64,000 bases of DNA from Escherichia virus TH44. Both the position numbers and the translations under genes were made by a program. This document shows positions 46,637 through 52,685 of this stretch, one piece after another. Positions within the stretch are counted from its first letter, which is position 1. Each line of letters begins with the position of its first letter. A model generated the notes under the pieces. That model was given only the letters and a program-made list of their open reading frames with translations. It made no database searches and had not been told where the DNA came from. The stretch is taken from the sequence record MT446415.1. One strand, given 5' to 3'.

Positions 46637-47815
46637 ATGAGTACAGTTTTTAATACCACTCCGGTGGATGTTTTAGCCGAGCCGATGTTTTTTGGTTCAG
46701 GATTGGGCATCGCACGTTATGATATCCAGCGTCATAAAGTTTTCGAAGAATTAACAGAAAAGCAATTATCATTCTTCTGGCGACCAGAGGAAGTCAACCT
46801 GATGATGGATGGGGCCCAATTTAATAAGCTTCCTGAACATCAACAAAATATTTTTACCAACAACCTGAAATACCAATCACTCCTGGACAGTATCCAGGGT
46901 CGTGCTCCAGCTGCAGCATTAGCCGCATTAGTTTCTGACCCAAGTCTTGATACATGGATTCAGACCTGGACATTCAGCGAGACAATTCACTCTCGTTCTT
47001 ATACGCACATCATGCGAAATCTCTATACGGACCCGGCGAAGGTATTCGACGAAATCCTGTTGGATGATGCAATCATGAAGCGAGCTGAATCCATCGGTCA
47101 TTACTATGATGATGTTCTGAATAAAACTCGTCAATGGCAAAACCAGATTGCTTTTGTTGAACTGGCCAAAGAAACTCCCGAAGCAGACGAACGTTTGGAA
47201 CGAGCTATCAAACAAGAAGCTATCGCCAAACGAGCATTGATGAAGTCTCTTTATCTCTGCCTGCATGTTATCAACGCCCTGGAAGCTATTCGTTTTTATG
47301 TATCTTTTGCATGTACTTTCAACTTCCATAAGAATATGGAAATCATGGAAGGCAATGCGAAGATAATGAAGTTCATCGCCCGTGATGAACAACTTCACCT
47401 TAAGGGGACCCAATATATTCTTCGTCAGTTGCAGACTGGTACCGACGGTGACGAATGGGTTAAAATTGCTCAAGAATGTGAAGCAGAAGCTGCAGCCATT
47501 TTCATGGAAGTTAATCGCCAGGAAAAAGAATGGGCCGTGCATCTGTTTAAAGACGGTGGACTCCCTGGGTTGAGCGTCGAGATTCTTAACCGCTTCATCG
47601 ATTACCTGACAGTTTCTCGTATGAAGCAATGCGGTCTCCCCTGTGAAATCGTGTTAGAATCTACTAAGCACCCGATTCCATGGATTCGTGAATATCTCAA
47701 CTCTGATAATGTGCAATCTGCCCCACAAGAAGTTGAGTTGTCTGCTTACCTGGTAGCCCAGATTGACAATGACGTCGATGAGAATGTTCTTGCTGGTTTC
47801 CGTAAATATCTATAA
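46637..47815 (+). CDS. nrdB: ribonucleotide reductase small subunit
   Basis: 392 aa, uninterrupted; di-iron ligand regions and radical Tyr region. Confidence 0.9.
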   Translation: MSTVFNTTPVDVLAEPMFFGSGLGIARYDIQRHKVFEELTEKQLSFFWRPEEVNLMMDGAQFNKLPEHQQNIFTNNLKYQSLLDSIQGRAPAAALAALVSDPSLDTWIQTWTFSETIHSRSYTHIMRNLYTDPAKVFDEILLDDAIMKRAESIGHYYDDVLNKTRQWQNQIAFVELAKETPEADERLERAIKQEAIAKRALMKSLYLCLHVINALEAIRFYVSFACTFNFHKNMEIMEGNAKIMKFIARDEQLHLKGTQYILRQLQTGTDGDEWVKIAQECEAEAAAIFMEVNRQEKEWAVHLFKDGGLPGLSVEILNRFIDYLTVSRMKQCGLPCEIVLESTKHPIPWIREYLNSDNVQSAPQEVELSAYLVAQIDNDVDENVLAGFRKYL

Positions 47816-47818
47816 GGA

Positions 47819-47840
47819 AAGGGCTTCGGCCCTTTTTGCC
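47819..47840 (+). terminator. rho-independent terminator
   Basis: AAGGGC-TTCG-GCCCTT plus TTTTT. Confidence 0.6.
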
Positions 47841-47841
47841 C

Positions 47842-48252
47842 ATGAAACAAATCGCTGATGAATACAGTTTTATAAAATACGCGGAGTTGGAGTTAGTCGA
47901 TGGTAAAATCCCTATCCTTACTCTCGCAAACAAGAAAAATGTTATCTATGCTATTTCAGTTGATGATGAACTAGTGTATATTGGTAAGACGAACAACCTT
48001 AAGAAGCGTATCAACTATTACCGGACTGCAATTAACCGAATCGAACAGACGAGTGATTCAAACAAATCCCGGATGATACATGAAGCTTTACAAGAAGGCA
48101 AAAAGGTGGTATTCTATGCACGGCAATGTTTCAATCTGTCAATGACCAATGAACTTGGCACAATGTCAGTCGAAACGATGTCTCTGGAAGAGCCGATGTT
48201 CATCAAGCTTTTTAATCCCCCGTGGAATTACCAACATAAGGTGAAGAAATGA
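47842..48252 (+). CDS. denA: endonuclease II (GIY-YIG family)
   Basis: 136 aa from ATG (identical to T4 EndoII length); VIYAI...LVYIGKT GIY-YIG-like motif; position between nrdB and rnlA. Confidence 0.6.
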   Translation: MKQIADEYSFIKYAELELVDGKIPILTLANKKNVIYAISVDDELVYIGKTNNLKKRINYYRTAINRIEQTSDSNKSRMIHEALQEGKKVVFYARQCFNLSMTNELGTMSVETMSLEEPMFIKLFNPPWNYQHKVKK

Positions 48253-49385
48253 TTGAATTATATGATAACTTAATGAAGCTTTGCGCCGAATCCGATAAAG
48301 GTAAGTTTTTCTATACGGATTTTGTTTCTCCATTTGAAACTAAGTTCCGCATCTTTAGCTATAACTATGCTTCCTATAGTGATTGGCTTCTTGATGATGC
48401 GCTGGAGTGTCGTGGTATTATGTTTGAAATGGATGCTAATGGCCCAGTTCGCATTGCCGCCCGTCCTATGGAAAAATTCTTTAATCTGGGTGAGAATCCA
48501 ATGACCATGGACCTTAACCTTGATGAGGTTGTCCTGGTTACTGCAAAAGCTGATGGTAGTTTGGTTTCTACTTATATGGACCAGACTAATATCGCCTTTA
48601 AATCCAAAGGGTCAATCAAAAGCTCCCAGGCTGCTGAATCCTTGCAGGTGTTTAAACAAGAGCATCGCAGTGCATTCAGGGCTCGCGTAACTGAAATCAC
48701 TGAAGCTGGTTATACATGCAATATGGAATATGTTGCACCAACCAACCGCATTGTTTTGCCTTACCAGGAACGTGACCTGATTTTACTGAACGTTCGTCAT
48801 AATGAAACGGGCGAATATATTCCTTATCAGGAACTGTTCAAAGATGCTGCACTCCGTCCTTTCCTGGTTGAAGCATATGACCCGGCGAGCATTGAGAATG
48901 TTCGTGGTATGAAAGAGATTGAAGGCTTCGTCTACGAGTTGGCAAGTGGTCAGAAGTTCAAGATGAAAACAGAATGGTATTGTGCTCTGCATCATACTAA
49001 AGACTCCATTAATAATAATGAGCGACTGTTTGAAGTTGTTGTTGCTGGCGGGGCAGATGATGTTATTGCCATGTTTACTGGCGATAATTATGCTCGCGAA
49101 AAAGTTAATGCCTTTACTGTAACGCATCTGGATTATCTGTCCAATACGCTGGGATTGTTGCTTGATGCTCAGAAACAATTGGCAGGAAAAGACCGTCGCG
49201 AGTTTGCGATTAAAGGTCAAGAGTTGTGCAAACCATACCCGGGATTGTTCTCCGTATTAATGAACACCTATCAACGCCCACAGGAAACTGAACAAACGAT
49301 TGCTCAAATCAATAAAGTTTTCCTTAAAAATCATAAACTTTACATTCCGTCGGACTACCAAGCGGAAGTAATCCTTCCTGAATAA
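48249..49385 (+). CDS. rnlA: RNA ligase 1
   Basis: 378 aa (T4 374); nucleotidyltransferase motif I lysine in TAKADGSL. Confidence 0.8.
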   Translation: MIELYDNLMKLCAESDKGKFFYTDFVSPFETKFRIFSYNYASYSDWLLDDALECRGIMFEMDANGPVRIAARPMEKFFNLGENPMTMDLNLDEVVLVTAKADGSLVSTYMDQTNIAFKSKGSIKSSQAAESLQVFKQEHRSAFRARVTEITEAGYTCNMEYVAPTNRIVLPYQERDLILLNVRHNETGEYIPYQELFKDAALRPFLVEAYDPASIENVRGMKEIEGFVYELASGQKFKMKTEWYCALHHTKDSINNNERLFEVVVAGGADDVIAMFTGDNYAREKVNAFTVTHLDYLSNTLGLLLDAQKQLAGKDRREFAIKGQELCKPYPGLFSVLMNTYQRPQETEQTIAQINKVFLKNHKLYIPSDYQAEVILPE

Positions 49386-49389
49386 TAAA

Positions 49390-49455
49390 AAAGGGGTGTA
49401 CAAGCCCCTTCTTTCTATACATAATGGTTCCATCAACTACTGATGAGGACCAAAA
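49390..49455 (+). promoter_or_regulatory. T4-type early promoter cassette
   Basis: AAGGGGTGTACAAGCCCCTT (the -35 sits in a hairpin loop), CATAAT, GGTTCCATCAACTACTGATGAGGA. Confidence 0.6.
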
Positions 49456-49456
49456 C

Positions 49457-49690
49457 ATGTTAAACTTAATTACAAATGACAGAGTTACACAGGCATATGG
49501 TGACAGAAATGATGGAATCTATGTCTACAAGGGAGACCACCGGATTGGTTTCATTACTGACCTGAAGGCCAAATTGTTAAAAGAACTGAAAGCTCAAACA
49601 GGTGATTCTGGGTTTAGAGCAAGAGCCAAAAAGAAAGATGAGCGCCTAGGTGCCAACTCTTTTGGTCCCCGGGGTTACAACCGCTACTAA
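49457..49690 (+). CDS. truncated paralogue of the alc N-terminal region
   Basis: 77 aa from internal ATG; ...QAYGDRNDGIYVYKGDHRIGFITDLKAKLLKELKAQ aligns with the N-terminus of the next ORF. Confidence 0.45.
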   Translation: MLNLITNDRVTQAYGDRNDGIYVYKGDHRIGFITDLKAKLLKELKAQTGDSGFRARAKKKDERLGANSFGPRGYNRY

Positions 49691-49703
49691 TGAGGAAAAT
49701 ATT

Positions 49704-50207
49704 ATGGATATGCAACTGATTTCAAATGAAATGATTGTCAATGAATATGGTGACCGTCATGACGGAATTTATGTCTATAAAGGGACCAAGAAAATTGGTC
49801 TCATGACTGACCTGCGGAAAAAACTCGCCTCCAATAAAAAGTTGAAAGCGAAACAAAAAGAATATCGTGATAAAAAATCAGAAGAGCGGAAAGAAGCACT
49901 GCATGAATCTGTTCCTGAAATGGTTGACTTCTTAAAGAACCATTTGGTTAAATATGATGCAGAAGTGTTCATCAATCAGACCCAACCTAATGTGCATATC
50001 AATGGATGTGTTTGTTATGTTGTGGTTGAACCCCTGACACTTCAACACCGCCTGGGAATTAAACACCCAGTGTTAACCCAGGATGATATGGCGGATGAAG
50101 TTGGTAATCAGTTCCGCATTTCAGCATCTGACAGTACAAATCACATCCTCCTGAATGGTTTATCCCAGGATGATATTGTTGAGGTAATCATCAAGTTATG
50201 CAAATAA
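49704..50207 (+). CDS. alc: Alc-like protein
   Basis: 167 aa from ATG with SD GAGGAAAA, exactly T4 Alc length; position between rnlA and pseT; sequence not verified. Confidence 0.45.
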   Translation: MDMQLISNEMIVNEYGDRHDGIYVYKGTKKIGLMTDLRKKLASNKKLKAKQKEYRDKKSEERKEALHESVPEMVDFLKNHLVKYDAEVFINQTQPNVHINGCVCYVVVEPLTLQHRLGIKHPVLTQDDMADEVGNQFRISASDSTNHILLNGLSQDDIVEVIIKLCK

Positions 50208-50551
50208 GTAATCTCACCGCAGGGCTTATGCTCGCCCTGGTAGTAACTGCTGGTAGTGGTTTCTATCTAAAAGCAAAAGTGGATAATCTCAAGACAGCGG
50301 TGGCGGAAGTCACCAAAGTCGCAGAAGATAATGCGAAAAATCTGCAATCAGTAAAAGACCAGGTTAATCAAATTAATCTCCTTGACCAACAGCGCCAGGA
50401 ATATGTTGAACACCTGCAGAAGGAAAATGATAAACTTCGTGCAGATGCAAAACGTACTAAGGTTGTGGCAGCGAAGCCTAAATTAGTTGAAAAACAGATT
50501 AATCAGTCTTTTGATAAGTTCGCCCAGGACTTCCAGGAGCTCACCAAATGA
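50198..50551 (+). CDS. i-spanin (T4 pseT.3-like)
   Basis: 117 aa type II membrane protein (N-terminal TM LMLALVVTAGSGFYL) with coiled-coil periplasmic part. Confidence 0.6.
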   Translation: MQISNLTAGLMLALVVTAGSGFYLKAKVDNLKTAVAEVTKVAEDNAKNLQSVKDQVNQINLLDQQRQEYVEHLQKENDKLRADAKRTKVVAAKPKLVEKQINQSFDKFAQDFQELTK

Positions 50552-50838
50552 TGAAATCTATCATGGCAGTATGTTTGGCTATTGGACTCGTTTCATGCGC
50601 CCAGAAGCCCGTTGTGGAGCCCACAATCCAAGTTCATCCTAATTGGCCTGTTGCATTGGCTGATTACAAACAGCAATGGGAAGTGAAGGTAATTGAGGGC
50701 CAAGCCTGGGTTGGCATGCCTTTTGAAGCATCGCAAGAATTCAGGATTTGGATGAATGATGTAAAAAGGTATGTACATGACCAAAAAGGTATGTTATGTT
50801 ATTATCGTTCTGAACTAAAAGAGGAACGTTGCAAATGA
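50548..50838 (+). CDS. o-spanin lipoprotein (T4 pseT.2-like)
   Basis: 96 aa; signal peptide with lipobox LVSC; directly downstream of i-spanin. Confidence 0.6.
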   Translation: MMKSIMAVCLAIGLVSCAQKPVVEPTIQVHPNWPVALADYKQQWEVKVIEGQAWVGMPFEASQEFRIWMNDVKRYVHDQKGMLCYYRSELKEERCK

Positions 50839-50942
50839 TAGAGACCTGTAGCCTTGGTTGGGATATTGTTAGATTTGGTGCATTCTGTTTTTGTTTTGGA
50901 ATTACGGCCACTTTATGTGTTCAAGGTCTTTTTGGAAAGTAG
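50835..50942 (+). CDS. small hydrophobic peptide
   Basis: 35 aa, not in track; TAG stop embedded in the next promoter cassette. Confidence 0.25.
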   Translation: MIETCSLGWDIVRFGAFCFCFGITATLCVQGLFGK

Positions 50943-51000
50943 TGTACAAACTTATGGGAGCAGAGTATAATGCTCCACGGATTATAAAATTTGAGGAATT
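50940..51000 (+). promoter_or_regulatory. T4-type early promoter cassette
   Basis: TAGTGTACAAACTTATGGGAGCAGAGTATAATGCTCCA. Confidence 0.6.
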
Positions 51001-51004
51001 GAAT

Positions 51005-51462
51005 ATGAAAATATTATGGTATGTTGAGAACGCTAATAATATCATGAAGTGTAAAGACGAATTCTTCCAAAAGCTGGCCCGAATTGGCTCTTGCCGCAAA
51101 ACACCTTTGGAAGGTAAAGCTCGATTCTTTATTAAAGAATGTAAAGGTGGAGCTATTACAGAAGTCGAATATTATGCTCCATGGAATGATTTCCCAAGCC
51201 GAGTGTTAGAATTATCCGAGCCTATTCCTTCTGATGTATGGAATTCAATCTTAGATGTTACGGCGTGCTATGAAGAAAACCAATCACTTCATGAAGAAAA
51301 AGAACGTATTCGTGAGCTAGTAAAAAGTTTTGAATACGCGGCTAAACGCCATGGTCAAATGCAATCTGCCGCTGCACTTGGTGATGTTTCTGAAAGTGCA
51401 GCTTATGAAACTGGTAAAATCCTTAAAACCTGTCGCGAAGAACTTTATAAGGAGCTTGGTGT

Positions 51463-51466
<4 letters not shown>
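51005..51466 (+). CDS. hypothetical protein (pseT.1 position)
   Basis: 153 aa from internal ATG with SD GAGGAA. Confidence 0.45.

Positions 51467-52684
<1,218 letters not shown>

Positions 52685-52685
<1 letters not shown>

Follow-up and report, generated by a model that had tools for sequence, protein, structure and literature searches.

The Alc protein of bacteriophage T4, 167 residues long (PMC8076793), binds the host RNA polymerase and terminates transcription on cytosine DNA (PMC2988021, PMC2939025). The paf mutations in the β subunit of the polymerase (R368, P372) block its action (PMC2939025, PMC2988021), and a 19-kDa protein placed at the paf site could extend as far as the downstream duplex or the non-template strand; both binding and termination have been demonstrated for T4 Alc only (PMC2988021, PMC2939025).

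Phages of the genus Gaprivervirus carry a second, short gene of the same family directly upstream of their full-length alc, and this gene is already annotated. The record of phage SP18 names it alcb ("similar to N-terminal region of bacteriophage JS98 Alc") and its longer neighbor alca; SP18 alcb, VR7ORF243c and the PHROG family phrog_17715 represent the same gene as the one described here, at 93-97% identity. The label 'inhibitor of host transcription', which SP18, VR7 and PHROG all attach to it, was transferred by similarity to the Alc N-terminus, and a literature search found no paper on the function of alcb. What we add are an analysis of selection, divergent orthologues, a conserved tail motif, and the architecture of the operon and its leader.

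Two kinds of described protein offer points of comparison. Microproteins, or dominant-negative small paralogues, such as the Id proteins and plant LITTLE ZIPPER, consist of an interaction module only, are expressed alongside their full-length relatives and can titrate the partner that both share. The Nun protein of phage HK022 is a small phage protein that acts on the host RNA polymerase; it finds its target by binding RNA with an arginine-rich motif, and basic residues followed by an aromatic residue near its C-terminus are critical.

The alcb-alca locus

The DNA analyzed here (the window) is a stretch of 64,000 nucleotides from Escherichia virus TH44 (MT446415.1), a T4-like phage of the genus Gaprivervirus. 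The approximately 1 kb around the two genes shares 99.0% identity with Escherichia phage ECML-359 and 93-99% with VR7, VR20, VR25, VR26, SP18 and others. The placement of alca between rnlA and pseT.3 (Table 1) is common to SP18, VR7, JS10, Q7622 and T2; in T2, JS10 (Dhakavirus) and Q7622 (Kanagawavirus) the order is that of the window, but rnlA leads directly to alc, with no alcb between them.

Further downstream, the stretch between pseT.2 and pseT (window 50839-51783) is variable among Gapriverviruses: in the window it holds ORFs of 191 residues (50891-51466) and 106 residues (51463-51783), in SP18 a single ORF of 118 residues, and in other relatives different small ORFs. Several public annotations of alcb and alca are wrong: in phage 212 (L010) the product names are off by one gene, so that alcb is labelled RNA ligase; in P8 (L009) and DCP80 (L012) the start of alca has been moved upstream, giving a product of 189 residues that overlaps alcb; and in EAWsc9 (L008) alcb is labelled 'PRC domain-containing protein'.

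Table 1. Genes and sequence elements of the alc region, in window coordinates.
Feature	Position	Strand	Basis
nrdB	46637-47815		
denA	47836-48252		
rnlA (RNA ligase 1)	48249-49385		
G+C-rich terminator-like hairpin AAGGGGTGTACAAGCCCCTT, then CTTTCT	49391-49410	+	terminator scan, RNA fold; directly after the rnlA stop
Promoter-like element, TGTACA-17 nt-CATAAT	49397-49425	+	scan, 9/12 match; intergenic comparison
Leader hairpin	49419-49460	+	z = -3.9, 0/200 shuffles as stable
alcb, 77 aa	49457-49690	+	ORF, Pfam ALC, BLASTP, selection, phrog_17715
Tail-encoding part of alcb, codons 46-77	49592-49687	+	12:2 variable sites; motif in L017, L018, P0026; pLDDT below 50
alcb/alca junction	49688-49706	+	stop TAA 49688-49690, SD GAGGA 49692-49696, alca ATG 49704
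alca, 167 aa, full-length Alc orthologue	49704-50207	+	Pfam ALC, phrog_1253, AlphaFold2
pseT.3	50198-50551		
pseT.2	50548-50838		
pseT	51780-52685		

alca encodes a full-length Alc

The initial annotation had taken the longer gene for Alc because its length and position are those of T4 alc, and alignment to the family bears this out from end to end. Residues 1-166 of alca cover positions 1-176 of the 177 positions of the Pfam ALC profile (PF17527; E = 6.5e-49, 166.4 bits at a cut-off of 25), phrog_1253 is matched with E = 1.6e-73, and identity to T4-type Alc (P0014) is 55%; across the homologues it ranges from 48% to 92%. The family invariants, read from an alignment of 22 homologues, are present in both lobes of the protein, from I6, G16, D20, G21, I22 and G32 through F89, N91, Q94, P95, N96 and V97 to H147, D156, E160 and C166.

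An AlphaFold2 model of Alc, based on the 22 homologues, has a mean pLDDT of 92.4 and predicts an N-lobe (residues 1-33, with a helix at 8-15 and a β-hairpin at 23-33), a long and very charged helix (34-80), and an α/β C-lobe (87-166). The best structural match of the model is a DNA-binding fold, and the invariant polar residues of the family lie mostly in the C-lobe. For the N-lobe model there are no recognizable fold relatives outside the Alc family; sequence searches of the PDB gave no match for Alc relatives, the N-lobe or the alcb tail, and neither the N-lobe nor the tail has a sequence or fold relative that would indicate a binding partner.

In 14 Gaprivervirus genomes alca has a pN/pS of 0.123. 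Its codons 1-45 (window 49704-49838) occur in the genus as two alleles that differ at about 10 of the 45 residues, as seen when the window is compared with L001, L003-L006 and L010-L013, and pS over these codons is 0.37, against 0.09 in the remainder of the gene. This mosaic suggests recombination with a diverged lineage that affected only the stretch with a paralogue in alcb. Gene conversion between the two genes was considered as another cause, and the allele-specific residues show no consistent match to alcb.

alcb combines an Alc-type N-lobe with a tail of its own

We place the start of alcb at 49457 because five relatives carry a TAA two codons before the equivalent ATG; the same TAA rules out an upstream start at 49424, which would give a product of 88 residues. 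As the initial annotation had proposed, alcb is a partial paralogue of the Alc N-terminus: BLASTP aligns its residues 2-63 to alca with 31 identities in 64 positions (48%; E = 2e-16), the two DNA sequences are 76% identical over 98 nt (approximately codons 5-37), and the motif that had been quoted, YGDRxDGIYVYKG…IG..TDL..KL, is common to both proteins. This similarity is far beyond chance. The Pfam ALC profile is matched with E = 1.2e-9 (38.5 bits, cut-off 25) over positions 3-62 of 177 only, and the window copy matches phrog_17715 over all of its 77 positions (E = 5.1e-53).

The Alc-type N-lobe and the beginning of the helix occupy residues 1-46, and a tail rich in Gly and Pro makes up residues 47-77. 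Since the protein ends at residue 77 with a tail that has no similarity to alca, it is a paralogue of Alc at the level of the domain, not an orthologue. What it has in common with T4 Alc is the N-terminal lobe, some 46-60 residues with YGDRxDGIYVYKG and every N-lobe invariant among them; it lacks the remainder of the full-length architecture, that is the long charged helix or stalk and the entire C-terminal lobe with the invariant F..N..QPNV, H147, D156 and E160; conversely, its disordered, basic tail is conserved and found in no Alc. The AlphaFold2 model of alcb predicts the Alc-type helix and hairpin, followed by a helix at residues 33-53 and a disordered tail at 54-77 (pLDDT 47-49).

The initial annotation had the protein diverge after the N-lobe, which is correct insofar as the tail does not resemble alca; the divergent part is nevertheless no random extension, as its motif is conserved and synonymous changes account for 12 of its 14 variable sites. 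The motif reads GF…RLGANSFGPRGYNRY-COOH in the window and GF…RxGxNSFGP..N[KR][FY]-COOH in general form, with G52, F53, R63, G65, N67, S68, F69, G70, P71 and N75 invariant, and the net charge of the tail, counted from the sequences, is +5 in all three lineages that carry the gene (see below).

A derivation of the tail from alc by frameshift or internal deletion was considered and rejected: Smith-Waterman comparison of the tail with all three frames of alca, in each of the three lineages, gave z values of at most 1.1 in a shuffle test, and similarity at the DNA level is confined to the approximately 98 nt of the N-lobe. In one alignment MAFFT paired ANSFGP of the tail with INQTQP of Alc, a register that fails beyond N…P and that we take to be a coincidence. 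A tblastn search with the tail peptide gave no matches.

alcb is conserved and under purifying selection

The locus was aligned from 14 Gaprivervirus genomes, which contain 10 distinct haplotypes of alcb, each with an intact ORF. In its own frame alcb has a pN/pS of 0.106, while the two alternative frames give 1.6 and 6.7; 17 variable sites are synonymous and 7 non-synonymous, where 22% would be expected to be synonymous (P = 6e-7), and the tail (codons 46-77), taken separately, has 12 synonymous and 2 non-synonymous sites (P = 2e-6). A triple change from CCC CGG to CCT AGA leaves Pro-Arg unchanged, and in VR7-type phages a 3-nt indel shifts the stop from TAA to the TGA of TGAGGA without altering the protein. 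More widely, alcb is intact in 33 of 33 GenBank records with a Gaprivervirus-type alca, so that the comparison of close relatives which the initial annotation had called for finds the pair in every Gaprivervirus record.

These data bear directly on the possibility that alcb is a pseudogene left over from a partial duplication, without function and with a frame that has stayed open by chance. Such a reading could appeal to the fact that alcb spans only the N-terminal third of Alc, and to one metagenomic variant with a frameshifting deletion of 35 nt. It is effectively refuted by the selection and conservation data: pN/pS is 0.11 in the coding frame and above 1 in the other two, the 17:7 ratio of sites and the preserved Pro-Arg tell against it as well, and the ORF and its Shine-Dalgarno sequence (SD) are conserved both in the 33 records and in two lineages diverged by about 50%, with length and tail motif kept. 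We regard the chance that alcb is a pseudogene as negligible, and alcb as very probably a functional gene.

The metagenomic variant is found on a Gaprivervirus-type contig (L019:2440-2667; ENA ERZ27275844), where the 35-nt deletion lies within the tail and the frameshifted product (P0002) has 75 residues and overlaps the start of alca. It may be a natural knock-out of the tail or, equally possible, an assembly error; if real, the tail may therefore be dispensable under some conditions. A different matter is the frame of alca, which is open for approximately 38-55 codons before its ATG and there overlaps the alcb tail; some GenBank records extend alca to about 189 residues accordingly. A fusion of alcb and alca by frameshifting or read-through was rejected, since pN/pS in this upstream part of the frame is 1.6-1.7 and the part is thus not coding.

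Distribution and origin of alcb

Outside Gaprivervirus, two lineages known from metagenomes (L017/L018 and L020) carry a gene of 77 or 78 residues with an ALC domain between rnlA and alc. Identity to the window is 75% (L017/L018; P0006) and 77% (L020; P0005) for Alc, and 51% and 47% for alcb; these alcb orthologues keep the invariants of the Alc N-lobe, I5, G15, D19, G20, I21, G31, D35 and L36 in alcb numbering, and phrog_17715 matches the L017 copy with E = 2e-22 and P0026 with E = 4.9e-20. The next lineage out (Alc P0007, 63% identical) does not have the gene, nor does any more distant phage examined, among them JS10, Q7622, T2, L026 and L027. An exhaustive HMMER scan of 1.84 billion representatives retrieved two alcb clusters and no other carrier of the N-lobe only, beyond one frameshifted alc (P0030), nor any other carrier of the tail; its other matches were ordinary Alcs and repetitive, unrelated long proteins. 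A scan of metagenomes added one near-identical copy of the Gaprivervirus type.

P0030 (BFVD A0A3S7GSC5), from Escherichia phage vB_EcoM-G28 (Tequatrovirus), is a T4-type alc truncated by a frameshift to 63 residues and has no alcb-type tail; it is an ordinary broken alc and as such a contrast to alcb.

The distribution over lineages, together with the divergence of the alcb copies, indicates a single duplication within one clade, old in relation to the genus. The initial annotation had considered a recent duplication remnant, and this does not hold: besides being under purifying selection, alcb predates the split of at least three lineages whose copies are 47-51% identical. Most simply, a stretch from the 5' end of alc, comprising the ribosome-binding site and about the first 50-60 codons, would have been duplicated in tandem in the ancestor of Gaprivervirus and the two related uncultured lineages; the upstream copy, ancestral to alcb, would then have come to terminate in the duplicated, stop-rich ribosome-binding site.

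Promoter, leader and junction

The region between rnlA and alcb, in which 4 of 71 positions vary among 14 Gaprivervirus sequences, was compared across the window, L017, L020, T2, JS10, Q7622 and L021. In other T-even-type phages the rnlA stop is followed by GTTTAC-N17/18-TAnnAT, of which GTGTAC…CATAAT is the equivalent in the window; by its sequence this element is probably a T4 early-type promoter. It precedes alc in phages without alcb and alcb in those that carry it. The terminator-like hairpin (Table 1) overlaps the -35 hexamer and is found in Gaprivervirus sequences; in its place the other lineages have an intact GTTTAC.

The leader hairpin sequesters the alcb SD (GAGGA, 49445-49449, 7 nt before the ATG) in its 3' arm and the start codon in its outer stem, and its 5' arm begins at the -10 box. 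Hairpins that bury the SD recur between lineages, with z values of -3.9 in the window, -4.9 in L017 (2719-2758), -6.1 in L020 (1012-1049), -5.4 in T2 (L016, 2440-2490), -3.3 in JS10 (L014, 2443-2487) and -2.7 in Q7622; the sequences of their arms are specific to each lineage yet complementary. Since the 5' arm reaches into the -10 box or the spacer, transcripts from this promoter would lack it, so that only transcripts reading through from upstream would be translationally masked; the arrangement thus seems to hide the SD in upstream read-through alone. A similar masking of the SD is known for the T4 genes e, soc and 49.

At the junction, which is unstructured (z = +0.9), alca starts 10-13 nt after the alcb stop, with an SD only and without a promoter-like element; the TGA of TGAGGA itself serves as the alcb stop in VR7-type phages, L017 and L020. 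In lineage L021, which has no alcb, alc has the same SD as alca, TGAGGAAAATATTATG. With promoter and leader in front of alcb and neither in front of alca, the genes constitute a single operon. The initial annotation had credited alcb with a promoter cassette of its own; a promoter-like element and a leader do precede alcb, but both are the ancestral ones of alc and serve both genes. alcb is a real and conserved gene, under purifying selection and co-located with alca in one transcription unit, where it would have kept the ancestral early promoter and structured leader of alc, both proteins being made from one early mRNA.

Possible roles of alcb

Of the functions that the initial annotation had raised, a decoy or a regulator is, from the sequence, the most plausible class. 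The starting point for a more specific proposal is the two-lobed structure of Alc: since the invariant polar residues lie mostly in the C-lobe and the best structural match is a DNA-binding fold, we infer that the N-lobe is the docking module, and the dumbbell shape of the model fits an arrangement in which one lobe docks on the polymerase while the other reads DNA. The N-lobe of alcb would accordingly bind the docking partner of Alc, most likely the host RNA polymerase near the paf site of the β subunit, and the tail would make a second contact, with nucleic acid or with another surface of the polymerase; by occupying or sharing the Alc site, alcb would modulate Alc-dependent host shut-off without causing termination itself. 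Both the partner and the effect on Alc are put forward tentatively, and the docking target would be wrong if it is the C-lobe that docks and the N-lobe has another role. The account as a whole, in which alcb is a functional gene derived from a duplication of the 5' end of alc and acts as a co-expressed modulator that shares the docking partner of Alc, is the one we favor, with slightly less than even confidence.

By analogy, alcb resembles the microproteins in being short and in having a single lobe of its full-length relative; it differs from them in its own conserved C-terminal motif, and this conservation of the tail makes a passive decoy unlikely. A pure competitor made from the same mRNA as Alc would blunt Alc and needs a rationale. 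The ending of the tail in a basic residue followed by an aromatic one is reminiscent of HK022 Nun, although we know of no sequence or fold relationship between the two, nor of anything in alcb comparable to the way in which Nun is targeted.

The operon layout fits a modulator, and equally a stoichiometric partner of Alc. In the latter case the N-lobes and helices of the two proteins would pair to form an alcb-Alc heteromer, to which the tail adds a contact that is absent from homomeric Alc. The co-transcription of the genes, with an alcb stop that abuts or overlaps the alca SD, is typical of stoichiometric partners, and within a genome the two N-lobes have residues in common that are specific to the lineage (GFLSDLR..F in L017, TDL…L in the window, each in both copies). 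The N-lobe of L017 alcb resembles alca (64%) no less than its own orthologue (60%). Such shared residues can, however, be explained by gene conversion between tandem repeats or by chance over 45 residues; the helix that follows the N-lobe is rich in K and E and highly charged, not a hydrophobic coiled coil; and Alc is not known to oligomerize. A heteromer is for these reasons rather unlikely, if still to be reckoned with.

alcb might also serve a purpose unrelated to Alc or to RNA polymerase, its basic tail binding nucleic acid or the nucleoid, or countering a host defense, with the N-lobe as a mere scaffold. The conserved +5 tail with its terminal aromatic residue would be in keeping with this, as would the faster divergence of alcb relative to alca (47-51% against 75-77% identity), which is expected after neofunctionalization; the old phenotype assigned to alc, unf, may be compared with a nucleoid-binding tail. 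Against it, alcb retains every surface and turn position at which the Alc N-lobe is invariant, a sign that the ligand is the same, and its strict linkage to alca within one operon, seen in each of the three lineages, speaks for a role in common. We therefore consider an unrelated function improbable and retain the modulator that shares the docking partner of Alc as our working model.

Relation to DNA modification, and significance

The Tevenvirinae genus Gaprivervirus is reported to lack the hmC enzyme but to retain DenA, DenB, Alc and dCTPase (PMC8056088, PMC12115623), and the DNA of VR7 is described as containing modified but unglycosylated cytosines (BREX study, PMC6326788). In the part of the VR7 record that we inspected (L024, 14000-40000), gene 42 (dCMP hydroxymethylase), beta-gt and alpha-gt are missing from their canonical loci: uvsX is followed by a hypothetical ORF of 167 residues (VR7ORF049c), 42.1, imm and 43, and the interval from gene 47 to gene 55 holds only a-gt.2 to a-gt.5; dCTPase (gene 56) has been kept. 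These observations are consistent with published accounts that the genus has no hmC enzyme.

Among the GenBank genera examined, alcb occurs in Gaprivervirus only, and its coincidence with the missing hmC enzyme is suggestive of a link, as a correlation that comes from a single lineage. Under such a link, alcb could tune or retarget the discrimination between self and host DNA that Alc exerts on the RNA polymerase, for instance by shielding phage DNA that is incompletely or differently modified from Alc, or by having its basic tail with the terminal aromatic residue sense the nucleic acid of the elongation complex. That alcb is an adaptation to the unusual DNA modification of its clade, and forms with Alc a two-component discrimination system, is nonetheless a long shot.

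If alcb modulates Alc, it would bear on how host shut-off and transduction are predicted for therapeutic T4-like phages. The existence of a natural protein, maintained by selection, that has only the N-lobe implies that the N-lobe of Alc is an autonomous functional module, and alcb is a ready reagent for telling the docking half of Alc from the DNA-reading half; its value lies chiefly in this natural dissection of the two lobes of Alc.
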